This document shows, piece by piece, positions 39,550 through 60,006 of a stretch of 64,000 nucleotides of DNA. The position numbers and the translations under genes are program-made. The notes under the pieces were generated by a model that saw only the letters and a list, made by a program, of their open reading frames with translations, was not told the DNA's origin and searched no databases. Source of the DNA: an uncultured Bdellovibrionales bacterium (lineage in GTDB: Bacteria; Bdellovibrionota; FAC87; UBA2466); contig CALCZU010000132.1 in assembly GCA_937903155.1 (NCBI GenBank), forward strand, positions 18,043-82,042. The letters run 5' to 3'. Within the stretch, counting starts at the first letter, position 1. Every line of letters begins with the position of its first letter.

Positions 39550-40761
39550 CTATGAAAGTTGGACGCCTTTGGCGATGGGGACGTGAAGGACTCTAACGAC
39601 TCCTAAGACTGCAGAGATGAAAAGAGTGATTAAACAAAGTGCGGTAATCGTAAGAATGTCATTTGGAAAATAACTCACGGTAATCTGGCTCCCGAGTGTC
39701 ATTCCAGGGGCGGGAGGCATCGCAATCCCGTTCGCAAGAAAAGTGCGTGAAACCATCACAACAAGAATGACGCCGCAGATCGCTGATCCCGCGCCTAAAA
39801 GGGACATTTCCGTAAATAAAAGGCGTAAAATATCGACTTTCTTCTCTCCATTCGCTCGGGCGACTGAAAATTCGTAGCATCTTTCGGCAACCGAAACCGT
39901 AACCGCATTAAAAATACCAAGAAGGATAATCACGAGAATGATCAACTCAAAAATCCGGCTCTGCCCCTTTAACCATCTCACCCCATTCACGTAGTTGATC
40001 TGGTCGAGCTCTTCAAAACTGAAAAACTCTACGTCATTTTTTTCCCACAACGAGGCTTTTAAATCTTCCCATTCCACGCCCGGCTTCAGGGCAACCGCAA
40101 CCGATTCTATCGCTTGGGTATCGAGGAGCACTTGTGCATCTTCTAACTCGACTTTGAAAGAAACATCATCGACGGCTTTGACGCCTGTCTCAAAAACCCC
40201 GACCAAAACAAAACTCATCATATTGACCGACCCATCCACGGTCGTCGTCAAAAAGCTCAGCGATTGGCCCAACTTCACGTTCAGTGCTTGGGCGAGCCCC
40301 TTACCAATAAAAATATTCCCTCGACTGCCATCGAGTGGGTGACCTTCAATGATTTTCAAGCGATCAAAGAAAGCGGCCTCTCGGACTCCTTTCACACCCA
40401 TTCCCAAGCCACTGAGAGAAACCGTTCCATTTCCGATCAGACCCGAGAGTCCCAGCCGCGGAAAAGAATCTTGAAGCAAACCCGATTGGGTGAGGTGGGG
40501 AAGAATCTCATCCGCATTTTTAAACCAACCCTTCCATGCATTTTCTTTCGTCTCGGTTCCATGATAGCCCTTCTTAAAGAGTGTTCCATGTCCGTAGCGG
40601 GAGTGAATCGACATTTCACGATAGTCCGAAAGAATTCCGTGATTAATCCCTCTAAAGAGTAAAAGTGCCGCCGCTCCAAAAGCAATCGTCGAAAAAATCA
40701 ATAAAGATCGCCTCGGGTTTCTGAGGAGATTTCTTAATCCGAATTTAAAAATTCTCGTCAC
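39550..40761 (-). CDS. ABC transporter permease, FtsX-like (MacB/LolCE family)
   Basis: 403 aa. N-terminal TM, a large periplasmic domain, three C-terminal TMs and the conserved FtsX-family block. It overlaps the upstream ATPase gene by 4 bp. Confidence 0.8.
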   Translation of the reverse strand: MTRIFKFGLRNLLRNPRRSLLIFSTIAFGAAALLLFRGINHGILSDYREMSIHSRYGHGTLFKKGYHGTETKENAWKGWFKNADEILPHLTQSGLLQDSFPRLGLSGLIGNGTVSLSGLGMGVKGVREAAFFDRLKIIEGHPLDGSRGNIFIGKGLAQALNVKLGQSLSFLTTTVDGSVNMMSFVLVGVFETGVKAVDDVSFKVELEDAQVLLDTQAIESVAVALKPGVEWEDLKASLWEKNDVEFFSFEELDQINYVNGVRWLKGQSRIFELIILVIILLGIFNAVTVSVAERCYEFSVARANGEKKVDILRLLFTEMSLLGAGSAICGVILVVMVSRTFLANGIAMPPAPGMTLGSQITVSYFPNDILTITALCLITLFISAVLGVVRVLHVPIAKGVQLS

Positions 40762-41441
40762 GTTCGGTCGATCTTTCCATCTCTTAATCGGATATTATCG
40801 TCGGCGCTTTCTAAAACCATTCCGTCATGACTTGCGACAATGGCACTCAATCCAAATTGCCGGCAGCCTTCTTTCAAAATCTGAATCACCTGTTTGCCAT
40901 TCGCCTGATCTAAACTCGCCGTCGGCTCATCCGCTAGAATTACCGAAGGTTTTTTCGCAAGCGCTCTCGCAATCGCGACTCTTTGCCTTTGTCCGCCGCT
41001 CATCTGATGCGGAAATTTTTTCTTCTGCCCTTCGATACCGACCATTTTCAAAGCTTCGTCCACGCGTTCTCGGCGTTTCAACTTACTCAGTCCCTGCCGA
41101 TGAAGGAAATACTCTACGTTTTCCTCGGCCGTTAACGTCGGAAAAAGATTAAAGCTCTGAAAAATAAAGCCTAAGTCAAAAAGACGGGCTTTCTCTTTCT
41201 CTTTTTCCGAAAGACGATTCACATCCTGTCCCTTAAAAAAAAGTTTTCCAGACTTCGGTTTGTCCAAAAGTCCAAAGAGATTCAAAAGCGTGCTCTTCCC
41301 CGAACCCGAAGGCCCTGAAAGACACACAAGCCTTCCGCTGGGAATTGAGGTTTCTATCGACTGCAAAGCCTCAATCGTTTCTTCCCCTAGACGATAGGAA
41401 TAACTCAATCCCTCAACGTGAAAAATACTATTTGTCTTCAT
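40758..41441 (-). CDS. ABC transporter ATP-binding protein (MacB/LolD-type)
   Basis: 227 aa. Walker A GPSGSGKST, signature LSGGQRQRVAIARAL and Walker B ILADEPTASLD. Confidence 0.9.
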   Translation of the reverse strand: MKTNSIFHVEGLSYSYRLGEETIEALQSIETSIPSGRLVCLSGPSGSGKSTLLNLFGLLDKPKSGKLFFKGQDVNRLSEKEKEKARLFDLGFIFQSFNLFPTLTAEENVEYFLHRQGLSKLKRRERVDEALKMVGIEGQKKKFPHQMSGGQRQRVAIARALAKKPSVILADEPTASLDQANGKQVIQILKEGCRQFGLSAIVASHDGMVLESADDNIRLRDGKIDRT

Positions 41442-42454
41442 ACTTCACTCACACAGTAGGCCTTGAAACTGTTTTTTACCGTTTCACGATCGCTTTTTGT
41501 CATTCCGAGGCACGGATCCCACTTCATCCCCACTCCTAAAGCTCCGTTATATTCGACGGCGCCGACACCCAGAGGTTGACCGGGATGGACGGGCGGAACG
41601 ACTGCCCAACCGACGAATCCTTTTTCTTCTTTTCCGCACCATCTCCCTAAGTTGCTGAAAGTTCCGACTCTTTTTTTCTTCGCTACCGTCGATGCGAGGA
41701 TTTTTCGATTCAAATTGTCCGAAAGAAAATCATTTAAGAGAACCGCTACAATCGTGCCCCAATAAGATTGCAGATCCACTTCTTTTTTGACCTTCGCATG
41801 GACGATTTCCGCCGTGTCATTATCCGCAAGATTAACTTCCATGATAGAGGTTTTAATACCCGGCGCTTTCGCTTCTTCAAAACTTTCGTAAAGTGAGACC
41901 GGAACAATCCACGTGCTATTATCTTTTTCTGACGGTTCTAGATAGGGTCTGACGGCACCATTCAAACTGTGAAGCAGGTGTGAGTTCACAGAAACTCCCC
42001 GTTTTTTTGCAGATTGACGCGTTTTTTGGGTTTCTTCTTCGCTTAAAAAAATCCAATCACACACGATTGTCGATTCACAACGCGGTTTTTCTTTCCACTC
42101 TCGGCTCTTTCGGGAGAACTGAACGAGCACGCGAAAAAACTGGATGATCCGCTTAAACCACTTCACTAAAAAACCGCTCTCATCGCGAGGGGGAACCGGC
42201 GGAAACGAGGTTTCCGTAATTTGGCCTTTGTCAGTGAGAAGTTTCACAAGTCCATTCATTCCATCGTAATCCGAATGGGGAATCTCAATCGTTTGAATTC
42301 CGGTTACATCCTTTGCAGCGTAGAGAATAGAAGTATCAAACCCCAACTCCGCAAAAAGATGAAAAGAGCGCTTAAAGGCATGGCCACCCGTAATCTGTTT
42401 TTTAACCACTCCATTACGAGACATCATAGATTCCTCTTTGTCCGGTTTTTTCAA
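41438..42454 (-). CDS. Hypothetical protein, possibly acyltransferase-like (weak WS/DGAT or condensation-type motifs)
   Basis: 338 aa. HSDYDG is a degenerate HHxxxDG. The C-terminal GTFSNLGRW resembles the WS/DGAT SNVPGP block. Speculative. Confidence 0.3.
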   Translation of the reverse strand: MKKPDKEESMMSRNGVVKKQITGGHAFKRSFHLFAELGFDTSILYAAKDVTGIQTIEIPHSDYDGMNGLVKLLTDKGQITETSFPPVPPRDESGFLVKWFKRIIQFFRVLVQFSRKSREWKEKPRCESTIVCDWIFLSEEETQKTRQSAKKRGVSVNSHLLHSLNGAVRPYLEPSEKDNSTWIVPVSLYESFEEAKAPGIKTSIMEVNLADNDTAEIVHAKVKKEVDLQSYWGTIVAVLLNDFLSDNLNRKILASTVAKKKRVGTFSNLGRWCGKEEKGFVGWAVVPPVHPGQPLGVGAVEYNGALGVGMKWDPCLGMTKSDRETVKNSFKAYCVSEV

Positions 42455-43304
42455 TAAAAGGTTGTTTCATTTGCGCCATCAAACGGTTTGAAACGGGGGA
42501 ATAATCATCCCTCGTTCCCACTTCTTTTACAAAATCGGTTTCCCGGTAATACCAGGTTCGAAAAAAGACGTCCCAAACACAGAGAACCTTGCCGTAATTT
42601 TTCTGATACTCCCCTGCTACCGTCGAATGGTGCCAGCGATGAAGTTCGGAAGTATTAAAAATTCGATTTGCGGTTCGAGAGGCATATTGAATATTCGCGT
42701 GTTCTAAAAGTCCTGTGACGATATTGATCGCAACGAAAAGACAGAGAATCTGTTCATTGGCTCCCATCAAATACACCGGAAAAAAATAGAGCGTCATCGT
42801 CAAAAAGAGATCGAAGGGATGAAAGCGAGCCGCATTTGCCCAATACACTCTATCGGCCCCGTGATGGATGCGGTGAAACCTCCACAAAAATCGATTTTCG
42901 TGCGCGAATCGATGAATGAGATAGAAAAAAAGCTCTGCAAATAAAAGAGTGACTAAGAACTTCAAGGCCAGGGACTGATTTAAAAGCTCAAACTGAAACG
43001 TCGGAATTGAAAACCCAGTAAAAAACCATCGATTTAACCAAGAGCTTAAAAGAACAATGACCGGAAAAAGAACAAAGGAGTGGATCAGATCGGCTAAAAA
43101 ATCCCCCTGATTGAGAAGCCAGTCTTTCCTCGCCGGATCTTTCTTTTCAAGCCAAATCATCGCGACAATCAGTGGAGAAGAAAAAAGGAGCGGGTAGACT
43201 TCTAAAAACTCGACGGGAACAAAACGCATTGTCAGAGCGATAAAAGTCATAAAGGCGGCAACGAGACTTAAATATCCCCAATGTGTATGTAATTTTTTAA
43301 ACAT
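42414..43304 (-). CDS. Sterol desaturase / fatty acid hydroxylase superfamily membrane protein
   Basis: Histidine boxes HRFAH, HRIHH and HRWHH sit in a polytopic membrane protein. The likely start is MFKKLHT at 43304. Confidence 0.75.
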   Translation of the reverse strand: MFKKLHTHWGYLSLVAAFMTFIALTMRFVPVEFLEVYPLLFSSPLIVAMIWLEKKDPARKDWLLNQGDFLADLIHSFVLFPVIVLLSSWLNRWFFTGFSIPTFQFELLNQSLALKFLVTLLFAELFFYLIHRFAHENRFLWRFHRIHHGADRVYWANAARFHPFDLFLTMTLYFFPVYLMGANEQILCLFVAINIVTGLLEHANIQYASRTANRIFNTSELHRWHHSTVAGEYQKNYGKVLCVWDVFFRTWYYRETDFVKEVGTRDDYSPVSNRLMAQMKQPFIEKTGQRGIYDVS

Positions 43305-44523
43305 GGCTGAGAAGCTCCACGAGAGTTTTTTTCTCCACCTGTCTAAGAGCGTAGAGCGTCGCGAGTAACGAGCAGGCAATCCCTAAGGCAGACCACTTCA
43401 CGGCACTTAGCGAACTCAGTCGAATTTGCGCGTAATAAAACCCTTCAAAACCTGGGGGCGGCGCCATCCAGACTCCTTTTGGGAAGAAAACCGCAAGAGC
43501 GCTGATCACAATGATCAGTCCGAGAGCAGCGCCCGCGCATCCGAGGATGAAAGCCTCGAGCAAAAAGATTTTCTTCACATTAATGCTCGTCTCGCCATTA
43601 GAGCGTAAGACTCCAATTTCTTTTGAGCGGTCTAAAACCCCGAGGGATGAGGTGTTAAAGACTCCTAAAAAGATGACGGAGGTGAAGATGACAAGAATGA
43701 GAAGAAACTGACTGTCGAGCCAGACTTTTGAAGTCTGATACATGACCTTATCCATTTCCTCGAATGAAAAAGCCTCGAGTTCAGGGAACCGAGGTAAAAC
43801 TTCAGAGTGAAATAAAGACCATTTGTCGGGATCTTTTAAACCGACCGAGAAAAATTCAACCTTCTCTGTTTCTAGTAACTGAAACGCTTGCTTCAGTTGT
43901 ACTCTAAAAAAACTATGATCCAGATCCGCATTCCCAGTGGAAACAATCCCTGCCACTTTACATTCGATTCCATTTAAATTTCCGCGCACCGTTTGTGAGA
44001 GCACGGTAATCGTATCGCCGACTTTTGCGTTGAGGGATTCTGCAACACCTATTGCGAGAATGATTCCATCTGGTTCATCTGTTAGATTTTTTCCGTAATG
44101 GATTTTAAGCGAATCAAAAAACGGAGCTTCTTTACCGCCATCGATCCCCTCTCCTCTTCCTGAAAAATTACTGCTACTCGCGCTTCCCTTTGAGAGTAGC
44201 GCTGTAAAACTCACGCGCGGATAAATGCCCGCAACGATCGGATTCTTTTCCATGTCAGAGACAATGTTTTGCCAATCCCCAATCCAGCCTTCAAAAGATT
44301 TCTCCTGAACGCTCTCGTAATACCCTTTACTAAATATTTTACCGTTTCCCACCTGCTGATGAATCACTTTATCGCGGTACTCACCCATCATCCCATCGTT
44401 AAACCCTTGGAATGCAAAAAGCCCTCCGACGCCCGCAGCGAGCGTAAAAAGGATTAAAAAAGAACGCATCGAGTGTCGGAGGCAATTTCGAAAAGCGAAA
44501 GGAAGAATCACTTTAAGATTCAC
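43297..44523 (-). CDS. ABC transporter permease, FtsX-like (second copy)
   Basis: 408 aa with the same architecture as 39550..40761. The N-terminus is MNLKVILPFAFRNCLRHSMRSFLILFTLAAGVGGLFA. Confidence 0.75.
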   Translation of the reverse strand: MNLKVILPFAFRNCLRHSMRSFLILFTLAAGVGGLFAFQGFNDGMMGEYRDKVIHQQVGNGKIFSKGYYESVQEKSFEGWIGDWQNIVSDMEKNPIVAGIYPRVSFTALLSKGSASSSNFSGRGEGIDGGKEAPFFDSLKIHYGKNLTDEPDGIILAIGVAESLNAKVGDTITVLSQTVRGNLNGIECKVAGIVSTGNADLDHSFFRVQLKQAFQLLETEKVEFFSVGLKDPDKWSLFHSEVLPRFPELEAFSFEEMDKVMYQTSKVWLDSQFLLILVIFTSVIFLGVFNTSSLGVLDRSKEIGVLRSNGETSINVKKIFLLEAFILGCAGAALGLIIVISALAVFFPKGVWMAPPPGFEGFYYAQIRLSSLSAVKWSALGIACSLLATLYALRQVEKKTLVELLSHV

Positions 44524-45505: not shown

Positions 45506-48226
45506 CTACCTCAAAATTCTGATTTCACCCTTACCTGCGTCTACCCGCACTCGATCACCCGTTTTTAAACGCGTCATTAAGCCACCATTGACACCCACAA
45601 TCGTCGGAAGACCGAGCTCTCTCGCAACGACCGCCGAATGGGACAAAAGACTTCCTCGTTCAATTAAGAGGCCGCTACACGAAGGATAAATCGGCACCCA
45701 TCCTGGATCGGTTCTTCCCGTCACTAAGATTTCGCCATCAATCCCTTGCGCATCTTTTGCGGAATGCACGACGCGAACAACGCCTTCGATAATTCCGGGA
45801 CAACAAGGAGTTCCCATCAAGACATCCGGATCATCACTGACTAAGAGATTCCTTAAGAGATCCCCTTCGGCCATTACAGAGGGAAAGCGAGCTGCGGCTC
45901 CCAGCGCACCCATCGTCACCATGCGATCGGGAGGGGCGACCGTTTTGTCGAATGTCGCATACTCCGCTTTTCGGATGGCTACGATTTGCTTCAATTCAAG
46001 AGACACGGCACGGCCCTCGATGAAAGCCACAATTTCTTCCACTGTGAGATAGAAAACATCCTGTCGAGTCTCCAAGAATCCAAGCTGGGTAAGTTTTTCT
46101 CCCATCGCTCTAAAAAGATGACGACTCACCCCAAAAATCTTCGTCCGCGCGAATCTTAAATTTTCGCGATTGCGAACGGCTCGACGGGCCTGCTTTAAAA
46201 TCCAACGGTAGACAATTTTTTTAACGCCCGAAAGCGCTTCGTCCGCCACTTTCTCGGCGGCAATGCGAATTTCTCTTTCGCGGGCTTCCATGTGCTCGAT
46301 TCGGTAAGACTGCGTTTTTACGTAACTCACCACCGATGAAATCACAAAAGTCGGATCATCGTGCAAATCCGGTTCTTCGAGTTTTAATTCGTTAATACAA
46401 CGGAATCCGTAACGGTCGAGGAAGTCTGCGAGGTCCTTCGCGAGGAAGGTTTCCTTGCCTTCGCCTTTAATAAAGCTCCAAAGCTCTTCTGGTGTACTTT
46501 CTAAAGCTTTTTTCTTTAGAATCACATCTTGATCGAGTCGAGCAGCAATTCTCATTAAACATTTTGTCGGCTCGGTGGAATCTAAATCTCCTTGCCCGCA
46601 GAGCAAGTCATTTTGAAGAGAATCTGCTTTCGATGAGTCCTTCACAACCCATTCGCTAGTGAGCTTCTTTAGCAATCCGAAAAAGACCATGCAAAGATAA
46701 TCGTTGATGATCGGTGCCTTCCATTGCTTGAGAAGTTCTTCGTCTAGATAAAAGAAATAATCCGAGAGCTCTTGCAACGACATTGCGTTGAAATTTTTCT
46801 TTCGAGCAACGTCGTAACATTTATTAAATCGATTCTGAAACTCCGCAATAATCGAATCAATTTTTAAAAACCGATTCAAAGTCCTAACGGAAAGAACAAT
46901 TTTTGAGAATAAGGAATACTTCGGTGGCTCTTTTACGAAATCAAAAATTTCTTTCAACTCAGGCCGGACCTGATCTTTCACTCCCATCATGGTTTCCATG
47001 AAGCCCTTGTTGCTCGAGGACCCCGGGAGCATCAGAACGAGCTGATACCAATTCACGAGATTGTAATAAATTCGTCCGCGAATTAGGGCGAGCATATTGC
47101 GAAAGACCTTAGCTTGTTTATCGACGAGCTCTTGAGGCACGCCCATCAGCTCGCAAAACTGAATATAAACTTGGTTATACGCCCGGCTTGCGAAACTAAA
47201 AGTCAGCGGAGACGTCACTCCACTATAGCTTTCAATGATATTCGAGTTATCCCAAAGAATCGGTTGTTTACCGACAATCGTCGGATCGTAAAAAGCATCG
47301 GGAGGAAGACTCGTAATCGGTCTCGTCTGAACCAAAAAGATTTCATTTCCTTCAAGACACCATTCGATATCTTGAGGCGATCCTAGGCTTTCTTCCAATC
47401 GACACGCAAGACCTGCGATTTTTAAAACTTGAGAGTCGGAAAGAGAGGATTTTCCCTGAAGGGTCGCTTCAAGTCCGACTTTTTCAATTCCACCTGAAGA
47501 AAGCTGAGACATCTTCTCTTTTTTATCCGCGATTTTCGAAATAATGTTTTGTGTCTCGCGGTGAGCTTCGAAATCATCCGAATCGAGTTCACCACTGACA
47601 AGCCCTTCTCCCAGTCCCCACACCGAGCTAATTAAAACATGATCTCTGTCTAAAACTTTAATGGGATGCCTCGAGAAGGCGACGCCCGCACTGGTCGCAT
47701 TCACCATCTTCTGAATCACAACCCCCACTCGGATATTGTGAAGAGTGATTCCTCTTTCCAAACGATAGCTCAAAGCTCGTTCTGAAAAACCCGAAGCCCA
47801 GCAGGCTTTAATCGATTCACAGATCTGATCAAATCCTTTCTGAAATAAAAACGAAGAGAATTGTCCCGCAAAAGAGTGCTCGCTTGAATCCTCATCGATT
47901 CCGCTTGAACGAACGGCAACGAACGGGGTCAGAAGTCCCGCTTTTTCGAGTTCACTTTTTAAAATTTCGCCTAACGAAGCTGAAAACGGAGCTGAAGTAA
48001 TCTTCGAATGGATTCGCTCGCTTTCGGCGAGTGGCTCGCCATCGACGACGAGCGCGGACTCCAAATTGTTTTCTTGAATAAATCGGTCGAAAACTTCTGC
48101 ACCGACACAAATCCAGGGCGGCACCGGAAAATTTTTCTGGGAAATTTTAGCGAGATTTGTTGCTTTACCGCCCCCGCGGTTTTGAAAGAACTCAATGGGA
48201 TCATTCGGAGATAGGATCAGATTCAT
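45506..48226 (-). CDS. PEP-utilising phosphotransferase with PPDK_N ATP-grasp domain and C-terminal phospho-His swivel domain (rifampin-phosphotransferase/PEP-synthase-like architecture, no TIM-barrel PEP domain)
   Basis: 906 aa. The N-terminus GGGKATNLAKI is the PPDK_N nucleotide-binding motif. The extreme C-terminus ERGSLLSHSAVVARELGLPTIVGVNGGLMTRLKTGDRVRVDAGKGEI is the PEP-utilisers mobile-domain motif with the catalytic His. Confidence 0.7.
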   Translation of the reverse strand: MNLILSPNDPIEFFQNRGGGKATNLAKISQKNFPVPPWICVGAEVFDRFIQENNLESALVVDGEPLAESERIHSKITSAPFSASLGEILKSELEKAGLLTPFVAVRSSGIDEDSSEHSFAGQFSSFLFQKGFDQICESIKACWASGFSERALSYRLERGITLHNIRVGVVIQKMVNATSAGVAFSRHPIKVLDRDHVLISSVWGLGEGLVSGELDSDDFEAHRETQNIISKIADKKEKMSQLSSGGIEKVGLEATLQGKSSLSDSQVLKIAGLACRLEESLGSPQDIEWCLEGNEIFLVQTRPITSLPPDAFYDPTIVGKQPILWDNSNIIESYSGVTSPLTFSFASRAYNQVYIQFCELMGVPQELVDKQAKVFRNMLALIRGRIYYNLVNWYQLVLMLPGSSSNKGFMETMMGVKDQVRPELKEIFDFVKEPPKYSLFSKIVLSVRTLNRFLKIDSIIAEFQNRFNKCYDVARKKNFNAMSLQELSDYFFYLDEELLKQWKAPIINDYLCMVFFGLLKKLTSEWVVKDSSKADSLQNDLLCGQGDLDSTEPTKCLMRIAARLDQDVILKKKALESTPEELWSFIKGEGKETFLAKDLADFLDRYGFRCINELKLEEPDLHDDPTFVISSVVSYVKTQSYRIEHMEAREREIRIAAEKVADEALSGVKKIVYRWILKQARRAVRNRENLRFARTKIFGVSRHLFRAMGEKLTQLGFLETRQDVFYLTVEEIVAFIEGRAVSLELKQIVAIRKAEYATFDKTVAPPDRMVTMGALGAAARFPSVMAEGDLLRNLLVSDDPDVLMGTPCCPGIIEGVVRVVHSAKDAQGIDGEILVTGRTDPGWVPIYPSCSGLLIERGSLLSHSAVVARELGLPTIVGVNGGLMTRLKTGDRVRVDAGKGEIRILR

Positions 48227-48238
48227 AAAGTTTTCCCT

Positions 48239-49087
48239 CTATAGTTTTCCAAACAGTTTTAATAAAAAAACCGACCAAATATGAATCACTAAGCTGAGAC
48301 TCGCCACAGCCTCTACCACTTTGTGAAGACGAAATCGAAGCAAAAGATAGGAGAGGGGAACGGCAATCGCAAATACTGCGGTCAGAGGATAAACCCCTAA
48401 ATAATAACCGCTTATGAGGGCTATCGTAGTAGTCACTAAAATGATCCCTAAACAGCCTTTGATTCCATACATCTGCCGGTAGGTTTTTAGAAGAACATGA
48501 GCATTCGGGTCGAGCTTACGAGACACTTCGTATGTGAAAAAAGAACCCAGCACGGTAAAGGCGTAGTACCAGGAATAAGATTTAGCGAGCGCTTGCGAAT
48601 CCGTCATAACGACGGGAAACAGACTGACCCAGACGAGAACTAACTGGTGGGTTGTCGCATACAAAATCTGGCGCGCCTCAAGCCACGGGCCTAAATAAAA
48701 CTCCACATACATCAGCCAAAGATGCACGGTGAGCCCCAAAAAGATAAGCCCGCTCACAGGTGAATGCGCGAAGAAAAGACAGCCAGCAAAAAGACCCATT
48801 CCCAAAACGACCAAAAGGATGACTTTCTTCACTTGTTCAACAGGGAGAAGCCCTCGAGGAAGCGGGCGGGTCGGATTTGCGATACAGTCTTTGTGGTAAT
48901 CCTTCACCTCATCCATCATTCTTAACATCGCGAAAAAAACCATAAGTCCCAGAAAAGAGAAGAGAAACTCTCTGGAAAGGAGAATGCCGCCGGCCAAAAG
49001 AGTTCCCGAGGCGCTAAATCCGCCCACCAAAATCGTATACACGACGAGAGGGAATCGCTCTTTTGTGTAGATCCACCAAGCCTTCAT
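48239..49087 (-). CDS. UbiA family aromatic/isoprenoid prenyltransferase (membrane)
   Basis: 282 aa. The first Asp-rich motif is RMMDEVKDYHKD (NDxxDxxxD type) followed by PTRPLPRGLL, in a 7 to 9 TM protein. Confidence 0.75.
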   Translation of the reverse strand: MKAWWIYTKERFPLVVYTILVGGFSASGTLLAGGILLSREFLFSFLGLMVFFAMLRMMDEVKDYHKDCIANPTRPLPRGLLPVEQVKKVILLVVLGMGLFAGCLFFAHSPVSGLIFLGLTVHLWLMYVEFYLGPWLEARQILYATTHQLVLVWVSLFPVVMTDSQALAKSYSWYYAFTVLGSFFTYEVSRKLDPNAHVLLKTYRQMYGIKGCLGIILVTTTIALISGYYLGVYPLTAVFAIAVPLSYLLLRFRLHKVVEAVASLSLVIHIWSVFLLKLFGKL

Positions 49088-49265: not shown

Positions 49266-49976
49266 ATGAAAAACCTCAGTTATTTTTTCGCATTGGCTCT
49301 TTTCATAGGGGCTTCAAGCTTTGCCATCACCCCTCCCGAAATCATCTCGAATGCCGATGCGATTCGAAATCCTTCGCAGAATTTTCACCTCAAAGTCGCC
49401 GTTACGAGCACGGACACCGATGACCAGTCTATTTTTGATGTTTCGATCCAGGGAAATACCCGAACGTTGATTCGGACGTTAAGTCCGGCCCGAGACAAGG
49501 GACGCAATATGCTGATGCTCGAAGAAGACATGTGGTCATACTTGCCCACTTTAAAAAGAGCGGTGCGAGTGAGCTTGAGCCAAAAACTCACCGGCCAAGC
49601 TGCGAATGGAGATATCAGCCGAATGAGGTGGGCCGAAGATTACGAAGCCACCCTCACCCAAGAAACACCCAAAGAGTGGGTTTTGCATTTAAAAGGAAAG
49701 AAGAAAGGTCTGACTTATGATCAGTTAGATGTTTGGGTTGAAAAAGATTCTTTTCGTCCTCTCAAAGCAAATTATCTAAGCGTTACCGGACAGACTTTAA
49801 AAGAAGCGAGTTATCTCGATTACAAACTGATGGCTGGCAAGCAACGACCTACCAAAATCGTGATTCAAGATGCGATTAAAAAATCTGCATCTTCGATTTT
49901 GACCATCCTCGAAATGGAATCACGCGATTTTCCACAATCCCTTTTCACTCAAGGAAATCTATCCCGCAGTGAATAG
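49266..49976 (+). CDS. Outer-membrane lipoprotein-sorting protein, LolA-like fold family
   Basis: 236 aa with a signal peptide. Composition and pattern are typical of small LolA-like (pfam17131-type) proteins. It overlaps the next gene by 8 bp. Confidence 0.5.
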   Translation: MKNLSYFFALALFIGASSFAITPPEIISNADAIRNPSQNFHLKVAVTSTDTDDQSIFDVSIQGNTRTLIRTLSPARDKGRNMLMLEEDMWSYLPTLKRAVRVSLSQKLTGQAANGDISRMRWAEDYEATLTQETPKEWVLHLKGKKKGLTYDQLDVWVEKDSFRPLKANYLSVTGQTLKEASYLDYKLMAGKQRPTKIVIQDAIKKSASSILTILEMESRDFPQSLFTQGNLSRSE

Positions 49977-51174
49977 ACTCGCCTTCACCCTTTTTATTTT
50001 GCTAAGTGCGTTTTATCGCTCTGCAAATGCTTACGAGTTTTCTAAAATCCAATGGACACCCGACTTTGAACTGGGACATCAGCTCGTCTACGGAGCAAAA
50101 GAAAACAAACTTTCGAAGAACTTAGGTTACACCGTTCTCTCGCTCAAGACGGACTTCCCCACCGAGTCGGCGACAGATCTCATCAACACGCGCATTTCTC
50201 TCAGGGGAGCACTGGACACCCAAGGGCCCGATGAAATTTCGATTCGTGCTTTTAACCTCAATTACGGAAACAACTGGCTGACCGTTACTGCAGGTTTTCA
50301 AGAAATAGCGTGGGGAGAAACTTTCGGGGTTTATATTTCCGATCTCGTCAATTCTAAGGACTTAAGAGATCCGTTCCTAAACGATTTGAGTTGGATTCGA
50401 ATTCCAACGGCGTCTTTACTCGCGCAAATCAATCTCGATAATTGGACACTCCAAGCCATCGTCACTCCGTTTCCGAAGAACAATCAATTCCCAGACGAAA
50501 TCAATCACCTTAAAATTGTTGAGCCTCCGGCGCTTCGACGAGACAATGTCTTTGAGCAAGCCGAGTGGGGCGCAAAGTTAGGACGTCTCTTTTCAACGGG
50601 CCTGGACGTGAATTTTTTCGCGCTCTACCATTGGAATCGAAACCCAGTGTTTGCACCTCAGCTTGTGGGAACGACGATTGGACTCATGCCCATTGTCCAG
50701 CAAACAAAATCGACAGGGCTGAGCTTTACTCAAGCGTGGGATAAAGTCGTTCTTCGAGGAGATTTCGTTTACCATTTACAAACACCGTTACAACCCGACT
50801 TCACCCAAAGACACCGAATCGGGAATTTTTTCCAAGCCATTCTGGGATCGGACCTCACGCTCGAGGAAAATTTGATCTTAGGGGCGCAATATCATGGGGA
50901 CTACGACGATGCTTCGAACCGGCATTGGTTGGGTTTGAGGGTCTCCAAACCCTTGCTTCGGCAAAAATTAACGCCAGAGCTTTTTGTTTTTCAAGGAATC
51001 AACAATAGCGACACCTGGATCCAACCCAAAATCCGATGGAATACTTCAGCAAATCTATCTCTTGATTTTGAATACTCTTGGATTCCCAATTTTCGAAGAA
51101 CGGCTCAGCCTGGATACTTTGGAACGTTTGAGAATTATCACCGGGTGTTTAGCTGGCTAAAATACAAATTTTAG
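49969..51174 (+). CDS. Putative outer-membrane beta-barrel protein
   Basis: 401 aa with a signal peptide. Alternating amphipathic beta-strand pattern and a C-terminal aromatic residue (...WLKYKF). Confidence 0.4.
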   Translation: MNRLAFTLFILLSAFYRSANAYEFSKIQWTPDFELGHQLVYGAKENKLSKNLGYTVLSLKTDFPTESATDLINTRISLRGALDTQGPDEISIRAFNLNYGNNWLTVTAGFQEIAWGETFGVYISDLVNSKDLRDPFLNDLSWIRIPTASLLAQINLDNWTLQAIVTPFPKNNQFPDEINHLKIVEPPALRRDNVFEQAEWGAKLGRLFSTGLDVNFFALYHWNRNPVFAPQLVGTTIGLMPIVQQTKSTGLSFTQAWDKVVLRGDFVYHLQTPLQPDFTQRHRIGNFFQAILGSDLTLEENLILGAQYHGDYDDASNRHWLGLRVSKPLLRQKLTPELFVFQGINNSDTWIQPKIRWNTSANLSLDFEYSWIPNFRRTAQPGYFGTFENYHRVFSWLKYKF

Positions 51175-52259
51175 ATCTTTTTCAGAAGTTCCACTTCGTA
51201 AACACCGACTTTTTCTTTCGAAATTAATTCGCGGTAGTTTTGAGTGATGTCGACGTAACCTGTTTTGTCACTGTTCTCAGGGATGTGGAGGTAATGTCGT
51301 AAGACGACCAATGCATTTTTTGAAAGATGCGGTAAGAGATCCGCAAGGTACTTCTTTTCTTTATTTCCCGTAAAATAAGACGGAACATCGGAGAGTGAAT
51401 AAAAATCAATCGGGGAATTCGCCGTTTGAGCGAGTTCAATCACATCTCCCTGCTGATATGAAACCTCACAGTTTTTTGCGCCTTCTTTTGCTGCAGCAAA
51501 AACATCGGGATGACATTCCACAGTACAGCCTTCGGGATAGGCAATTTCTCCCATAAAAAGAAGCTGCAAAAAGAAATTTTCGCGCGCTAACGTATTTTCA
51601 AAAAGATGGGCAAAGACTCGATTGTAAAACCCGACGTAACTCTCGGAGATATTCTTCTTGGTAAAATCGCCTTTATAGAGGAGCGCATTAAAAACCGAGG
51701 CATTTCCTAAGAGCGCGAGCACTAGTTTCCAACGCAAACGCGGAAAACGTTTTTTAAAGTACTCCTTTTGCTCTTTTAAATCTCGGCATTCAAAAATTTT
51801 TCTCCCCGCACGGCCTGTGATTTTGGAATTTACTTTGGAGAGATTTACAAAAAGATTTTCCCACTTACCGAGATACAATAAAGGCTTCCAGTAAATCGAT
51901 TCAAACATTCCCGAGAGATATTCGCGCGCAGGATTCGAGAGTGTCAGAGAATTAAAAATCTTTTTTCTCTCTTCGGCCGTCGCTTCTACTCCGGGATAAC
52001 CGAAAAGTTTTTTAAATTCATCGAGAGAAAGCGCTTTAACGCCTTCAATTCGCATTTCGGTCAGATAGAGCTGAAAAGGAGAAACATCGACGCAAGTGAG
52101 TTTCTTTGGCGCGCGAGAGAGGAGAGGCATGGCTCGCCCGCCACTTCCCGCAACGGTAAAAACATGGGAAGCATTTAGCGGGAGCAAGGCGACTTCTAAA
52201 GCCGTATCTTCATTAGCTAAAGTGTAGTTCAGTTTATTTTCAAAATATTGATTGCTCAC
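51171..52259 (-). CDS. DUF3419 / BtaA-like protein (SAM:diacylglycerol 3-amino-3-carboxypropyl transferase family)
   Basis: 362 aa. The N-terminus LNYTLANEDTALEVALLPLNASHVFTVAGSGGRAMPLL....LTCVDVSPFQLYLTEMR matches the BtaA/DUF3419 pattern (NY..cWED...L.....vl.itSgGcnaL..L....v.aVD.np.Q..L.eLK). Confidence 0.5.
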   Translation of the reverse strand: MSNQYFENKLNYTLANEDTALEVALLPLNASHVFTVAGSGGRAMPLLSRAPKKLTCVDVSPFQLYLTEMRIEGVKALSLDEFKKLFGYPGVEATAEERKKIFNSLTLSNPAREYLSGMFESIYWKPLLYLGKWENLFVNLSKVNSKITGRAGRKIFECRDLKEQKEYFKKRFPRLRWKLVLALLGNASVFNALLYKGDFTKKNISESYVGFYNRVFAHLFENTLARENFFLQLLFMGEIAYPEGCTVECHPDVFAAAKEGAKNCEVSYQQGDVIELAQTANSPIDFYSLSDVPSYFTGNKEKKYLADLLPHLSKNALVVLRHYLHIPENSDKTGYVDITQNYRELISKEKVGVYEVELLKKI

Positions 52260-52361: not shown

Positions 52362-53780
52362 TTGAAAATTTATAACTTTATGAATTGTATAGAAATTTTT
52401 GCGGAACGACAAAAAGAGGTCAAAGACAATCTCGCTCTATGGTGTCCTGGCCAAGAGAAAATGAGTTTCGGAGAATTATACTCGCTCGCCGCTCGCATTC
52501 AGATTGAACTTTTGAAGCAGGGGTTACGTCCAGAAGATCCGGTTTTAGTTTTTGAAGGTTTATCACCTCGACTTTATGCGACGATTTTAGCCCTTTTATC
52601 GACGGGAGCGACGATTCTCTTCGTTGAGCCTTGGATGCCTTTGAAAAAAATTGAACATGTGATTCAAACTGCAAAACCTCGTTTCTTTCTTGCGGGAGTC
52701 GTTGGTAAACTTTGGGGTTTAAGAGTTCCTGCAATCCGCAAAATTCCAAATTGGATCAGTGTCAACTCGCTCGCAAAAGCTACCAAAACGGGAGAGCTTA
52801 AAATCGAATCGGTTCCCGGCGAAGTTCCAGGGATTATCACTTTTACAACTGGCACAACGGGAAAACCGAAAGGCGTTGTTCGACACCAAAGTTATCTTCT
52901 CGAACAGTACCGCGTTTTTTCAAAGTCTCTTTCAATTAACGATCATTCGGGACCTGACTTGTGCATTTTTGCAAACTTTGCGCTCGCCAATCTTGCAGCA
53001 GGTAGAGGCAGTCTCATTATTCCCTCTGGATGGAAGAAAAAGCATTTAAAACAGCTCGATCATTTTTCCGCGAAAGAAAAACCGGAGACAATGACTTCGG
53101 GCCCGGCGTTCCTCATGCGTTTAATGGAACTTGGGGTCGCAAGAGATCTCAAATCGATTCATATCGGTGGAGCTCTCACCGATTGTGCGATTTTCGAAAA
53201 GGGATTTGCTCACTGGCCAAAAACACACTGGATGCACCTCTATGGAAGCAGCGAAGCTGAGCCCGTAGCACTTGCAGATGCCGAAGAAGCCGTTCGAAAA
53301 AGCCGCGAAAAAGGCCTGTTTCAAACTCTCTATCTGGGAAAACCGATTTCCGAAGTCGAAGCAAGAGTCGAGGACAAAGGCCTTTGGATCACAGGCCCTC
53401 ATGTTTGCCCAAAATACTTTGCAAACGAAGATGAGAATCGAATCCACAAACACACCGATGAAAAAGGTCGAGTGTGGCACGCGATGGGAGATCGGATTGA
53501 AGAAGACTCTAGCGGATGGTGGTATTCGGGAAGGGCTCAGCAATCGCGCGCTGATTTTACGTTAGAACAAAATATTTATTCTCACCTTCAATCGAGCAAC
53601 GCCTTTCTTCATCGAGACAAAGACAAGTTGATTGTTTATGGAAAAAATCTCGAGAAACGAAAAGGCGAACTTCTAAAAGCATTTCCTTCTCTGACAGATT
53701 GTTTTTCCGCACCCATTGTCCGAGATCGCAGACACCGCGCCCGAATCGACCGCGTCGAAAGCCGCAAGCGCGCGAAGTAA
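52362..53780 (+). CDS. AMP-dependent synthetase/ligase (adenylate-forming enzyme)
   Basis: 472 aa. The core motif ITFTTGTTGKPKGVV is the A3 box (T/S)GTTGxPKG. Confidence 0.75.
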   Translation: MKIYNFMNCIEIFAERQKEVKDNLALWCPGQEKMSFGELYSLAARIQIELLKQGLRPEDPVLVFEGLSPRLYATILALLSTGATILFVEPWMPLKKIEHVIQTAKPRFFLAGVVGKLWGLRVPAIRKIPNWISVNSLAKATKTGELKIESVPGEVPGIITFTTGTTGKPKGVVRHQSYLLEQYRVFSKSLSINDHSGPDLCIFANFALANLAAGRGSLIIPSGWKKKHLKQLDHFSAKEKPETMTSGPAFLMRLMELGVARDLKSIHIGGALTDCAIFEKGFAHWPKTHWMHLYGSSEAEPVALADAEEAVRKSREKGLFQTLYLGKPISEVEARVEDKGLWITGPHVCPKYFANEDENRIHKHTDEKGRVWHAMGDRIEEDSSGWWYSGRAQQSRADFTLEQNIYSHLQSSNAFLHRDKDKLIVYGKNLEKRKGELLKAFPSLTDCFSAPIVRDRRHRARIDRVESRKRAK

Positions 53781-53897: not shown

Positions 53898-55982
<2,085 letters not shown>

Positions 55983-58046: not shown

Positions 58047-59047
58047 GCGTTTTCCCTCTGTAAAAAATCGCTATACCCTCTAAAAAATACATCTTGGTAT
58101 TTTTGAAAGGAAGGCACGAGGTTTTCTGAAAAGTCTCTGGTAAATTCCGGGTTTTTTAATTCCGTCGGAGTAAAACAAAAATCAAAAAGTTGAGACGGTA
58201 TATGCGTGTACCGAGTTTGTAGTTTCAGTGTCATAGAGGGGGCTCGGGTCATCAAAACTTTGGTTCGCGGAAAATATCGCCGCACCATCAAATTTGCTAA
58301 AATCGAGGCTCTCAGACTGTTGGGATTGTAAACACCATAAATCGGTTTGAGATCATTCATAAAGAGTGCCTTTACAAAGGCAAGGGCCGCCACATCGACG
58401 GGCACCAATGGGAGCAACGCTTTTCGTGCTCCTGGAATCGGAAGCACAGGGAGCCTTCCCAAAACTCTATTGGACTTTAAATTTTGTAAAAAATTTAAAA
58501 GGTAGTAAGGCCCATCTAGTTTTGCGATTTCACCTGATTGGCTGTCACCCACGAGAATTCCCAAGCGCAGTGCAACGCCTCTGACAGAAGACTCTAACAC
58601 GAGCTTCTCCGCCATCGCTTTGGTATGCGCGTAGGCTTTTTTCTTTGACGGCAGTGCGGTTAAAGGCAATTCATTTGAAACCGCTCCCCACGAGTCATTT
58701 TCGACAGCGTAACTAGAAGCATGCAGAAACAGCGGCTGATTCTGCGTTCTTTGCGCCCACTGGACAATCGAAGACGTTGCTAAAATATTATGGAGGTAAC
58801 ACTCTCGGTAATTCGCTTCGAATTGATAAAGGCCGGCCAGATGAATGATCGCATCGACTTTATTTTTCACGCCGTAAAGAGAGGTCGGGTCCGAGAGATC
58901 ACATTTGACGGATTTGATTCGACTATCGAGAAACTTCCGTTCACTTCTTGAGAGAAGGATAATCTCTGAAACTCTTTCTTCTTTTAACAGTTCACTTAAA
59001 ACCTGTTTCCCCAAAAATCCTGTCGCGCCGGTTAATAAAACTTTCAT
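58043..59047 (-). CDS. SDR-family NAD(P)-dependent epimerase/dehydratase/reductase
   Basis: 334 aa. N-terminal LLTGATGFLG Rossmann motif and a catalytic YxxxK region. It overlaps neighbours by 4 bp on both sides, so it is part of an operon. Confidence 0.65.
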   Translation of the reverse strand: MKVLLTGATGFLGKQVLSELLKEERVSEIILLSRSERKFLDSRIKSVKCDLSDPTSLYGVKNKVDAIIHLAGLYQFEANYRECYLHNILATSSIVQWAQRTQNQPLFLHASSYAVENDSWGAVSNELPLTALPSKKKAYAHTKAMAEKLVLESSVRGVALRLGILVGDSQSGEIAKLDGPYYLLNFLQNLKSNRVLGRLPVLPIPGARKALLPLVPVDVAALAFVKALFMNDLKPIYGVYNPNSLRASILANLMVRRYFPRTKVLMTRAPSMTLKLQTRYTHIPSQLFDFCFTPTELKNPEFTRDFSENLVPSFQKYQDVFFRGYSDFLQRENA

Positions 59048-60006
59048 ACGGATTCACTCAATAATTCTGGATACGTCTCTGTCATCGTTTTACGAAGTCG
59101 ATTGGTTCGATACACTTTTAGAGAAGACGGAAGAATGGAAAACTCGAGACGACTCGCTTTGGTCAAAGTTTCACCATCGCCAAAAACACAGAGTTTCTCA
59201 CCATCAATGGACTCTACAACGACCTTTTTTGAGGTAAAGGTAATGGCACCCTCGGGAGGTCTCCCTCTTTTGATATCCGAAAAAACTTTGAGAACATCTA
59301 CGGCACGCGTTTTTGCGATAATCAGCGATTCCATATAGCCGTCGCTGTTTCTGGCATTGGGAGAGACCCAGAGATCCCCTCCGAGCTTTTGTTGATTGCA
59401 AATGAAAATAGCCGCGGTGTCGTGCACGCCATGATAACTCTCAGAAGTAATGCGCACCTTGTGCTTATAGCCATTCTGGAAAAAGATTTGTTCGAGAGAG
59501 AGAAAAGAATAAATCTGTGACTTCATTTTTTTCGCAAGCCAGTTGATCGGTTTGAATCGATTGCGGAGCTGATTAAACTGCAGCGTGAGCAACGCGCCAA
59601 AACCAATTCCGCCAACTGTCGCAAAAGGACATCCATTCACAATAATGAGGTCCATCTCCTCATATTGTTTTTCTTGGATGAGTTCCGGAACTTTTTCCCA
59701 GTTCACTCTCATCCCGAGTTCTTCAACGAGATCATTTGCGGTGCCACCCGCAATTAACAAGAGAGGAAGATTTCTTCCCATCACCGCCGGCAATGCTTGG
59801 TTCAAAGTGCCGTCGCCCCCGATTAAAATCACGCATTCATAATCCGCGGGCTGGAGCTTCCAAAGACACTCGCGCAGTTCTTCGGTAGATTCGGGACAAG
59901 CAAATTGAGTTTGGAAATTTTTTAAGAATTTTTCTGCCATCAATTGATGGAGTTGAATTTCGGCTTTGGCCTTACAGCCATTCACTACAATAAAAACTTT
60001 TTTCAT
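59044..60006 (-). CDS. Lipid kinase, diacylglycerol-kinase catalytic-domain family (YegS/BmrU-like)
   Basis: 320 aa. The DAGK_cat signature is VILIGGDGTLNQALPAV. Gly-rich nucleotide loops IAGGTANDL and GGIGFG are present. Confidence 0.7.
   Translation of the reverse strand: MKKVFIVVNGCKAKAEIQLHQLMAEKFLKNFQTQFACPESTEELRECLWKLQPADYECVILIGGDGTLNQALPAVMGRNLPLLLIAGGTANDLVEELGMRVNWEKVPELIQEKQYEEMDLIIVNGCPFATVGGIGFGALLTLQFNQLRNRFKPINWLAKKMKSQIYSFLSLEQIFFQNGYKHKVRITSESYHGVHDTAAIFICNQQKLGGDLWVSPNARNSDGYMESLIIAKTRAVDVLKVFSDIKRGRPPEGAITFTSKKVVVESIDGEKLCVFGDGETLTKASRLEFSILPSSLKVYRTNRLRKTMTETYPELLSESV

Follow-up and report, generated by a model that had tools for sequence, protein, structure and literature searches.

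Among the closest described relatives of the protein considered here are single-chain enzymes of the rifampin phosphotransferase (RPH) type, in which an ATP-grasp domain, a helical substrate domain, and a C-terminal swivel domain with a phospho-histidine follow one another, as in RPH-Lm (PDB 5FBS/5HV1; PMC4844700). The catalytic residues of RPH were defined as K22, R117, R666/E667/K670, and H825, and distant clades keeping the Arg-Glu-Lys block were predicted to be active phosphotransferases with a different substrate (PMC4844700). The same study noted that RPH-type homologs are misannotated as phosphoenolpyruvate (PEP) synthase or pyruvate, phosphate dikinase (PPDK) and that RPH does not accept pyruvate as a substrate. 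PEP synthase and PPDK have homologous ATP-grasp and swivel His domains, with the His domain in the center and a PEP/pyruvate TIM barrel at the C-terminus. The zearalenone phosphotransferase ZPH of Bacillus is another single-chain, three-domain enzyme of RPH type and adds a phosphate to a hydroxyl group on a small hydrophobic compound; it is of the detoxification type and without conserved biosynthetic context (PMC11768653). The prodiginine ligases PigC, RedH, and HapC catalyze dedicated steps within biosynthetic clusters; HpeHI, CreHI, and the phenylphosphate synthase PpsAB are catabolic two-protein systems for small phenols (PMC12167813). For most characterized relatives, the group that receives the phosphate is a phenolic or polyketide hydroxyl. 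In 2016 the RPH homologs of unknown specificity were predicted to form a large family of small-molecule dikinases, and few substrates have been assigned since.

With these systems we compared a protein of 906 amino acids, hereafter the dikinase, encoded by an intact open reading frame (ORF check) in a 64,000-nucleotide stretch of DNA from an uncultured Bdellovibrionales bacterium (the window; Table 1). A preliminary description of this DNA had proposed the three-part layout of RPH without a PEP/pyruvate TIM barrel, pointing to a PPDK_N signature at the N-terminus (GGGKATNLAKI) and a swivel phospho-His motif near the C-terminus. The signature was found at residues 18–28 and the motif, LLSHSAVVARELGLPTIVG, at residues 860–878. 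Pfam set the domain boundaries at residues 19–307 for PPDK_N (PF01326, E-value 4.8e-73) and 830–900 for the PEP-utilizers swivel domain (PF00391, E-value 4e-19), and neither PEP-utilizers_C (PF02896) nor any further Pfam family was detected at E ≤ 0.01. In the AF2 model, the region from approximately residue 315 to 795 is all-helical and without a (beta/alpha)8 barrel, and a database protein identical to the dikinase (P0001) has a precomputed match to PF27448 (Rph_4th). RPH-Lm was the top full-length structural match of this model, which is of moderate confidence (pLDDT 73, and below 50 in the swivel domain), and comparison of the ATP-grasp domain with 5hv6 gave a TMt of 0.86–0.90. The dikinase has the RPH-type architecture, as had been proposed, and it is by this architecture that it is likened to ZPH.

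Table 1. Features of the window in and around the dikinase gene (positions in nucleotides of the window).
Feature	Position	Strand	Basis or remark
FtsX permease	39550-40761	-	downstream operon gene
ABC ATPase	40758-41441	-	downstream operon gene
Unknown gene	41438-42454	-	downstream operon gene
OlsE-like fatty-acid hydroxylase	42414-43379	-	downstream operon gene
FtsX/MacB_PCD permease	43297-44523	-	downstream operon gene
Five downstream operon genes, whole	39550-44523	-	Pfam/NCBIfam
Tandem-GNAT N-acyltransferase-like, 327 aa	44520-45503	-	starts 2 nt past dikinase stop
RPH/PigC-type small-molecule dikinase, 906 aa	45506-48226	-	NCBIfam NF004881 clade
Phospho-His swivel domain (PEP-utilizers), aa 830-900	45527-45739	-	Pfam
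Swivel phospho-His motif, aa 860-878	45593-45649
Codon of catalytic His863	45638-45640
Helical substrate-binding domain (Rph_4th type), aa ~310-800	45827-47299	-	AF2 model; Rph_4th of identical protein
Block R687-E688-N-L-R691	46154-46168
ATP-grasp (PPDK_N) domain, aa 19-307	47306-48172	-	Pfam; K21, R106, S125 correspond to RPH K22, R117, T136
PPDK_N signature, aa 18-28	48143-48175
Divergent UbiA-superfamily membrane protein, 282 aa	48239-49087	-	weak NCBIfam prenyltransferase hits; orthologs with PF01040
LolA-like	49266-49976	+	divergent pair member
DUF1302-like outer-membrane protein	49969-51174	+	divergent pair member
DUF3419 protein (family includes betaine-lipid synthases BtaA/BTA1)	51171-52259	-	Pfam
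ANL (AMP-binding) adenylating enzyme, 466 aa	52380-53780	+	ortholog of cassette ANL
AAR/PigE-N-like thioester reductase, 687 aa	55983-58046	-	accessory trio
NAD_binding_4 SDR	58043-59047	-	accessory trio
DAGK_cat lipid kinase	59044-60006	-	accessory trio

The catalytic residues of RPH-Lm are shared with the dikinase. When 20 orthologs were aligned, K21, R106, and H863 were invariant, H863 matching RPH H825, so that the catalytic His on which the earlier proposal depended is in place. The block R666/E667/K670 corresponds to R687/E688/R691, which was likewise invariant in the 20 orthologs. Residues 310–566 could not be aligned to RPH, either with phmmer or with a 20-sequence profile, and the acceptor is therefore not readable from the sequence.

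The dikinase scored 887.8 bits against NF004881 (PRK06241.2-2), a model named "phosphoenolpyruvate synthase" with a cut-off of 883 bits, and is thus a member of this clade. The same model was the best for cluster-linked homologs from Bdellovibrio (905.8 bits), Caldilineaceae (889.8), Brevibacillus (789.1), Linnemannia (689.2), and Roseinatronobacter (636), and many database sources call the dikinase or its homologs PEP synthase. That the protein is a genuine PEP synthase or PPDK, as the NCBIfam/PGAP name would have it, is nevertheless exceedingly improbable, and this identity was rejected. The protein lacks the PEP-utilizers_C TIM barrel, carries its His domain at the C-terminus instead of in the center, and has a helical middle domain like that of Rph; the models for PEP synthase itself fall far below their cut-offs (270 vs 739.75 bits for TIGR01418 PEP_synth and 269 vs 598 for PRK06464); the misannotation noted in the RPH literature points the same way. 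Judged from sequence, the NF004881 clade is misnamed, as its domain content does not support the name PEP synthase.

Directly upstream of the dikinase gene lies a gene for a UbiA-like membrane protein. Although the protein of the window has no Pfam match at E ≤ 0.01, PF01040 passes the cut-off in many of its orthologs and in fusions. Its first motif is kept (D59xxxD63xxxD67...R74PLPRGL, in which D63, D67, and R74/LPRGL are invariant and D59 nearly so), with Asp in place of the Asn of the NxxxDxxxD consensus. The second DxxxD motif is absent and a conserved YE187xxR190K191xD193 stands in its place; prenyl transfer by this protein is therefore only putative. A sequence search of the PDB with the UbiA-like and GNAT-like proteins gave no match, and the AF2 model of the latter is a generic tandem GNAT without a clue to the acceptor. 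The UbiA-like gene ends 12 nt before the ATG of the dikinase gene, and a GAGGG Shine-Dalgarno sequence overlaps its stop codon, which indicates tight packing without overlap. The preliminary description had taken the two genes to be translationally coupled; the adjacency is real, as in 66 of 71 loci a UbiA-like gene of the same strand immediately precedes the dikinase gene, but what was described as coupling is the 12-nt spacer with its Shine-Dalgarno sequence and not an overlap.

This adjacency is part of a conserved cassette in the order ANL, UbiA-like, dikinase, tandem GNAT, which related loci of seven or more bacterial phyla share. A GNAT gene directly follows the dikinase gene in 59 of 66 loci. 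Of the 59 loci with enough flanking sequence, UbiA-like is present in 58, ANL in 57, and GNAT in 55, and 54 loci have the complete set. Represented among the loci are Bdellovibrionota/Oligoflexia, Caldilineaceae, Gemmatimonadota, Planctomycetia, Polyangiaceae, and Rokubacteria, and the module is retained at 32–37% identity in Roseinatronobacter (Alphaproteobacteria) and Brevibacillus. Five core genes (DUF3419, ANL, UbiA-like, dikinase, and GNAT) are present in locus L026 and in an operon on a Roseinatronobacter plasmid (L089). Gene fusions join the same partners: ANL::UbiA-like and dikinase::ANL::PP-binding (ACP) fusions exist, as do ANL::dikinase fusions in the early-diverging fungi Chytridiales, Linnemannia, and Mortierella (chytrids and Mortierellaceae). 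The ANL and tandem-GNAT partners, which like the fusions were absent from the preliminary description, are as conserved as the UbiA-like protein. At least 581 GTDB species genomes carry the clade, as counted with two clade-specific peptide patterns and tblastn confirmation. A literature search found no paper on the ANL/UbiA-like/dikinase/GNAT cassette.

The cassette bears on whether the dikinase could be a stand-alone kinase that inactivates xenobiotics or antibiotics, like RPH, the zearalenone/flavonoid phosphotransferases of Bacillus, or the catabolic phenolic dikinases. Every characterized single-chain relative besides the PigC type is such an enzyme, and some databases name the homologs "rifampicin phosphotransferase". 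Against this stand the synteny, fixed as in a biosynthetic cluster across phyla, the fusions with ANL, and the absence of catabolic genes nearby; whereas RPH-Lm is encoded by a stand-alone resistance gene, the dikinase gene is part of a conserved biosynthetic cassette. Its identity to RPH-Lm is 24–28%, compared with >42% within clade A (PMC4844700), the RIF-binding region is unalignable, and the Rph model NF041857 gave 338 bits with a cut-off of 999. A clade-A (rifamycin-inactivating) RPH was rejected on these grounds, in agreement with the earlier view that the gene does not serve antibiotic resistance, and we regard a stand-alone inactivating kinase in general as very unlikely.

Frequent companions of the cassette are a BtaA-like DUF3419 protein, an oxygenase, a lipid kinase, a thioester reductase (AAR/SDR or HMG-CoA reductase), and envelope exporters. 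A lipid or isoprenoid flavor is given by DAGK_cat, a CTP_transf_1/DUF92-like membrane protein, HMG-CoA reductase, and an OlsE-like hydroxylase, and the P450 among the companions is closest to terpenoid oxygenases. MMPL, LolCDE-like ABC, LolA-like, and DUF1302-like proteins add to this flavor, and a membrane protein of 446–472 amino acids in some clusters has only weak matches to CTP_transf_1, DUF92, and UbiA. In the window, the label "lipid operon" given earlier is reasonable in view of the LolCDE-like ABC/FtsX, OlsE-like hydroxylase, LolA-like, DUF1302-like, DUF3419, and DAGK_cat genes, while counterparts of its OlsE-like hydroxylase and of the unknown gene next to it are absent from related loci. 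The trio of reductase, SDR, and DAGK_cat is found again in 24–27 loci, with a collinear arrangement of trio and cassette in L063 and L079; no family was detected in the first 315 amino acids of the 687-residue reductase. Promoter and terminator scans of the window were at chance level and do not define the operon ends. A sphingolipid/ceramide-type cluster was considered and dropped, as the recurrent neighbors do not include an Spt-like PLP enzyme.

In our preferred reading, to which we assign a probability of roughly 55%, the dikinase is a small-molecule dikinase that performs a dedicated step of a conserved pathway, and the likeliest acceptor is a hydroxyl on an intermediate of the UbiA-like/ANL enzymes. 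ATP would be bound by the ATP-grasp domain, and His863 of the swivel domain would attack its beta-phosphate, the gamma-phosphate leaving as Pi. The swivel domain would then carry the phosphate to the helical middle domain, where the R687/E688/R691 block may position it for transfer onto an oxygen of a hydrophobic acceptor, for a predicted net reaction of ATP + X-OH -> AMP + Pi + X-O-P. In the proposed pathway, ANL, the divergent UbiA-like membrane transferase, the dikinase, and the tandem GNAT would form the core, joined in most cases by a BtaA-like DUF3419 protein. The pathway probably yields an envelope compound of prenylated or lipidic nature that bears a carboxylate and an amine, and ABC/MMPL/MFS plus LolA-like systems may export it. 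Because the dikinase gene shares one cluster with the UbiA-like gene across phyla, the phosphate acceptor of the enzyme is most likely a lipid-like intermediate in an envelope pathway, and, with the preliminary description, we infer a lipid or isoprenoid hydroxyl as the acceptor. That the characterized relatives act on phenols, flavonoid/polyketide hydroxyls, or a pyrrole aldehyde counts against a lipid acceptor. As a second kinase (DAGK_cat or CTP_transf_1-like) is often found in the clusters, the phosphate chemistry may also be split differently.

A different outcome of the same chemistry is conceivable, in which the dikinase would be an ATP-dependent ligase like PigC/RedH: the phospho-His would activate a carbonyl, enol, or aldehyde oxygen as a leaving group, the middle domain would condense the activated compound with a second intermediate, and the final product would be phosphate-free. 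The dikinase resembles PigC/RedH/HapC in architecture and in its His/Arg phosphotransfer site, HapC and PigC employing the same His and Arg. The PigC and RedH models (339.6 and 347 bits) match it end to end in one stretch (residues 15–905) at scores no lower than the 338 bits of the Rph model, which come in two stretches spanning the ATP-grasp and C-terminal parts only, and the pattern is the same in cluster-associated homologs of Caldilineaceae, Bdellovibrio, and Brevibacillus. On this coverage, full-length for PigC/RedH and partial for Rph, an activating/condensing role fits equally well. Enzymes that form aldehydes (AAR/PigE-N-like reductase, thioester-reductase-type SDR, and HMG-CoA reductase) are also repeatedly encoded in the clusters, but these genes are accessory and many loci lack them, such as those of Caldilineaceae; some clusters, moreover, have Phosphodiest and lipid-kinase genes, which suggests lasting phosphate esters. 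An actual PigC/RedH equivalog was rejected, as the scores miss the cut-offs of 1300/1350 bits by approximately 1000 and no pig/red or bipyrrole/MAP pathway genes surround the dikinase gene, whose partners are instead ANL, UbiA-like, tandem GNAT, and DUF3419; the sole pig/red-like item in the context is the PigE-N-like reductase domain, which scored 143.5 bits with a cut-off of 850. Taken together, we consider a PigC-like ligase unlikely, though it is the foremost of the alternatives to phosphorylation of a pathway hydroxyl.

Less likely still is that the dikinase makes the donor for its neighbor, turning an alcohol or a monophosphate into a diphosphate (X-P -> X-PP, or transfer of pyrophosphoryl from His) for alkyl or prenyl transfer by the UbiA-like protein. 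An analogy is the route from phytol through phytyl-P and phytyl-PP to the UbiA-type VTE2. The minimal spacers at the conserved UbiA-like/dikinase junction favor such a role, as does the pairing in the clusters of a thioester-to-alcohol reductase (AAR+SDR or HMGR) with a first kinase. Among 37 loci with full flanks, DAGK_cat was present in 12 and the CTP_transf_1/DUF92-like kinase in 4, never together, and the invariant basic residues of the UbiA-like protein (R56, K62, R74, R78, R190, and K191) fit a polyanionic donor. A pyrophosphoryl-His intermediate is, moreover, accepted in the RPH/PPDK mechanism (PMC4844700). Yet the superfamily has no known member that uses a phosphate monoester as acceptor or hands on pyrophosphate, many loci contain no reductase/kinase module within ±10 kb (neither kinase occurs in 21 of the 37), and prenyl diphosphates are already supplied by primary metabolism. 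In its fullest and equally doubtful form, dikinase, ANL, and UbiA-like protein would together make and use their own donor as a module of a widespread envelope-lipid pathway: an acid activated by ANL would be reduced to an alcohol (by HMG-CoA reductase or AAR/SDR) and phosphorylated, the dikinase giving the second phosphate or the pyrophosphate, before alkyl/prenyl transfer by the UbiA-like protein. Brevibacillus and Roseinatronobacter probably use the MEP route and not mevalonate; such a module, if true, might explain HMG-CoA reductase genes in MEP-route bacteria and would be the first case of an RPH-type dikinase acting on a lipid or a phosphate ester.

The observed synteny and fusions tie the clade to ANL, UbiA-like, tandem GNAT, and BtaA-like proteins and thereby to a concrete orphan pathway, whose product in predatory Bdellovibrionota, Caldilineaceae, Gemmatimonadota, and others is probably a lipid of the cell envelope. 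The context of the cassette narrows the search space for the substrate of the dikinase, and renaming the NF004881 clade would spare metabolic reconstructions of these organisms a false "gluconeogenic PEP synthase".

The open reading frame encoding the dikinase, a protein of the RPH/PigC type, is intact and specifies 906 amino acids. The N-terminal ATP-grasp motif GGGKATNLAKI and the C-terminal swivel motif LLSHSAVVARELGLPTIVG, both claimed in the preliminary description, were located at residues 18–28 and 860–878, and a Pfam search placed PPDK_N (PF01326) at residues 19–307 (E = 4.8e-73) and the PEP-utilizers swivel (PF00391) at residues 830–900 (E = 4e-19). This search returned no other family and, as had been claimed of the PEP/pyruvate TIM barrel, no PEP-utilizers_C domain; a third family, Rph_4th (PF27448), is precomputed for the identical database protein P0001. 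In an AlphaFold2 model built from 20 orthologs (pLDDT 73, swivel domain poorly resolved), the region between the end domains is predicted to be all-helical, and the ATP-grasp domain, taken alone, superposes on 5hv6 with a TM of 0.86–0.90. The three-part architecture first read from the sequence is confirmed, far beyond chance. The residues defined experimentally as catalytic in the Listeria rifampin phosphotransferase RPH-Lm (K22, R117, T136, R666/E667/K670, and H825; PMC4844700) align with K21, R106, S125, R687/E688/R691, and H863 of the dikinase. All of these, including the catalytic His, are invariant among 20 orthologs of 54–63% identity, save S125, which is nearly so. No alignment to RPH was obtained, even by profile, for residues 310–566, which make up most of the substrate-binding domain. 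Stogios et al. described distant RPH clades that keep the Arg-Glu-Lys block without the RIF-binding blocks, are often misannotated as PEP synthase, and were predicted to 'retain general phosphotransferase activity' with a different substrate (PMC4844700); the dikinase shows exactly this pattern, with the Arg-Glu-Lys block kept and the RIF-binding region unalignable.

The dikinase scored below the cut-offs of the Rph equivalog model (338 bits; cut-off 999), the prodiginine ligase models PigC (340 bits; cut-off 1300) and RedH (347 bits; cut-off 1350), and the PEP synthase model TIGR01418 (270 bits; cut-off 739.75). The only model passed was NF004881 (PRK06241.2-2; 887.8 bits against a cut-off of 883), which bears the name 'phosphoenolpyruvate synthase'. 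As this model also ranked first for homologs linked to the cluster in Bdellovibrio, Caldilineaceae, Brevibacillus, Roseinatronobacter, and the fungus Linnemannia, it therefore defines the dikinase clade, and judged by the predicted domain content of that clade its name is wrong; that the dikinase is a true PEP synthase, as the name would have it, is exceedingly improbable. On dikinase-clade proteins the PigC and RedH models align in a single end-to-end stretch, whereas the Rph alignment is either broken into two segments or confined to the ATP-grasp domain, so the middle domain appears, if anything, slightly nearer to the prodiginine ligases. A PigC-like role, in which the dikinase would activate and condense, draws on this likeness; with the PigC score below cut-off, we consider it unlikely.

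In the window, the UbiA-like stop codon lies 12 nt before the dikinase ATG and is overlain by a GAGGG Shine-Dalgarno sequence. The minus-strand operon continues from UbiA-like and dikinase through GNAT-like, FtsX/MacB permease, OlsE-like fatty-acid hydroxylase, an unknown gene, ABC ATPase, and a second FtsX permease. LolA-like and DUF1302-like genes are transcribed divergently from it; beyond this pair lie first a gene of the DUF3419 family, which holds betaine-lipid synthases, then the gene for the ANL (AMP-binding adenylating) enzyme, and farther along the trio of AAR/PigE-N-like reductase, NAD_binding_4 SDR, and DAGK_cat lipid kinase. The OlsE-like hydroxylase and the following 338-aa protein, which has just a weak WS/DGAT match, have no counterpart in any related locus; as listed, their ORFs reach 83 and 41 nt into the genes before them, and translation therefore probably begins farther downstream. 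An OYE/FadH-type flavoenzyme (Oxidored_FMN and Pyr_redox_2), encoded between the ANL gene and the trio, is absent from the recurrent neighbours in related loci. Elsewhere, this Bdellovibrionota-type bacterium encodes a topoisomerase VI B-subunit-like protein (Topo-VIb_trans and HATPase_c), and the adjoining ORF may encode the A subunit; a gingipain-family protein (Peptidase_C25) and a glycosyltransferase of the PMT_2 family, also encoded in the window, are unrelated to the cassette.

Positions of features in the window and in related loci (L handles)
Feature	Sequence	Position	Strand
Dikinase	window	45506-48226	-
UbiA-like	window	48239-49087	-
GNAT-like	window	begins 2 nt past dikinase stop	-
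OlsE-like hydroxylase and 338-aa gene	window	41438-43379	-
ANL	window	52380-53780	+
OYE/FadH-type flavoenzyme	window	53898-55973	-
Topoisomerase VI B-like	window	20685-22472	-
Adjoining ORF	window	19541-20680	-
Peptidase_C25	window	2629-4452	+
PMT_2	window	6033-7418	-
Polytopic membrane protein	L004	6359-7753	
Polytopic membrane protein	L068	6341-7681	
Polytopic membrane protein	L088	12811-14130	
Polytopic membrane protein	L089	4932-6251	
HMG-CoA reductase	L088	6600-8060	
HMG-CoA reductase	L089	2-520	
Phosphodiest	L086	13790-15397	
Phosphodiest	L087	13811-15529	
DAGK_cat after dikinase	L085	12758-13678	
AurF-like/Bd3614-like	L035	6493-7473	
AurF-like/Bd3614-like	L065	14674-15372	
ANL::UbiA-like	L029	7591-9918	

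A genome scan confirmed relatives in at least 581 of the 599 pattern matches listed; 80 loci were kept and 7 more were added by exact protein look-up. Using tblastn and ORF clustering, a fixed same-strand cassette of ANL, UbiA-like, dikinase, and GNAT-like genes was defined in these loci. Among the 59 with enough flank, 58 have the UbiA-like gene, 57 the ANL gene, 55 the GNAT gene, and 54 all three. The link between dikinase and UbiA claimed for the window holds widely, with the UbiA-like gene directly upstream in 66/71 loci; the GNAT-like gene is directly downstream in 59/66. Beside this fixed neighbourhood, a stand-alone xenobiotic kinase, as the likeness to RPH-Lm might suggest, seems very improbable. 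The carriers are chiefly Bdellovibrionota/Oligoflexia, together with Caldilineaceae (full cassette in 10/10), Gemmatimonadota, Planctomycetia, Polyangiaceae, and Rokubacteria. Recurrent companions are DUF3419 (45 loci), the trio (24–27), P450 (20; nearest to terpenoid oxygenases), ABC/FtsX, MMPL or MFS exporters, and LolA-like genes; in Halobacteriovoraceae, cassette and companions form one collinear operon. Gemmatimonadota have HMG-CoA reductase and a 446–472 aa membrane protein in place of the trio, and DAGK_cat and this membrane protein co-occur in none of 37 full-flank loci (12 vs 4 singly). The recurrent polytopic membrane protein (439–472 aa) has only weak similarity to CTP_transf_1, DUF92, and UbiA. 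Far more diverged versions still keep the module: on a plasmid of Roseinatronobacter (32% identity) it comprises HMGR, UbiA, dikinase, DUF3419, a membrane protein of 439 aa, GNAT-like, and ANL, and on a replicon of Brevibacillus laterosporus (37%) these genes follow in the same order, with a P450 added. The HMG-CoA reductase gene is first in the cluster operon in both of these and in Gemmatimonadota (L088, L089, L066, L068, and L073). Individual loci show a Phosphodiest gene (PF01663, alkaline-phosphatase superfamily) directly after the GNAT gene, a DAGK_cat kinase directly after the dikinase (one locus), or, adjoining the cassette in one lineage (Silvanigrellaceae-type loci), a di-iron oxygenase resembling AurF and a deaminase resembling Bd3614.

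In about 10–14 loci, ANL and UbiA-like form one continuous ORF of ~750–870 aa, the ANL C-terminus (RDxRHxxRIDR) continuing directly into the UbiA-like N-terminus; these include L029, where Pfam identifies both AMP-binding and UbiA, the latter above its cut-off at 40.1 bits, and L009, L027, L035, L038, L039, L052, L053, L065, and L070. An exhaustive HMMER search with the dikinase (6,675 50%-identity clusters at E ≤ 1e-30) recovered one dikinase::ANL::PP-binding fusion and fungal ANL::dikinase fusions of 1665–1832 aa, 41–44% identical to the window dikinase, from Chytridiales sp. JEL 0842 (P0232) and Linnemannia hyalina (P0233, with members also from L. gamsii and Mortierella hygrophila). Together with a UbiA-like homolog in the fungus Podila humilis (P0207), these fusions suggest inter-kingdom transfer of the module to early-diverging fungi.

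In the UbiA-like family, the RPLPRGL loop and the Asp-rich motif before it are retained, a conserved YExxRKxD stands in place of the second DxxxD, and many basic residues are invariant. Production by the dikinase of a diphosphate donor for this enzyme would suit the paired genes and the invariant basic residues, but we find it distinctly unlikely. The ANL is nearest to PRK09274 fatty-acid-CoA-ligase-like proteins and OleC-type enzymes. The usual ANL C-terminal motif is GK(I/V)xR; in the short (466 aa) window ANL it reads RARIDR, so the A10 lysine is presumably replaced by arginine. A confident model of the GNAT-like protein (pLDDT 86) shows a tandem GNAT fold like that of MshD, Eis, or glucosamine N-acetyltransferase, and this predicted fold implies N-acylation of an amine.

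By homology, we infer that the dikinase would be an ATP-dependent dikinase in which His863 would accept the beta-phosphate within the ATP-grasp domain and carry it across to the helical domain, where R687/E688/R691 would position it for passage to an oxygen on a hydrophobic acceptor. Because of the synteny and fusions, this acceptor is placed within the pathway common to the ANL and UbiA-like enzymes, and the exporters and lipid-type companions favour an envelope lipid or meroterpenoid-like product; we assign this reading as a whole a probability of roughly 0.55. Whereas the domain layout, the conserved residues, the synteny, and the fusions were observed directly, the chemistry, acceptor, and product are our inference.

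The enzyme type is already known, non-RIF clades of RPH-type enzymes having been foreseen (Stogios et al., PMC4844700), and no paper on the ANL/UbiA-like/dikinase/GNAT cassette was found in the searchable literature. The novelty lies in delimiting a large clade, wrongly named, whose members stay tied to one particular multi-enzyme cassette in different phyla and as far as the early fungi.
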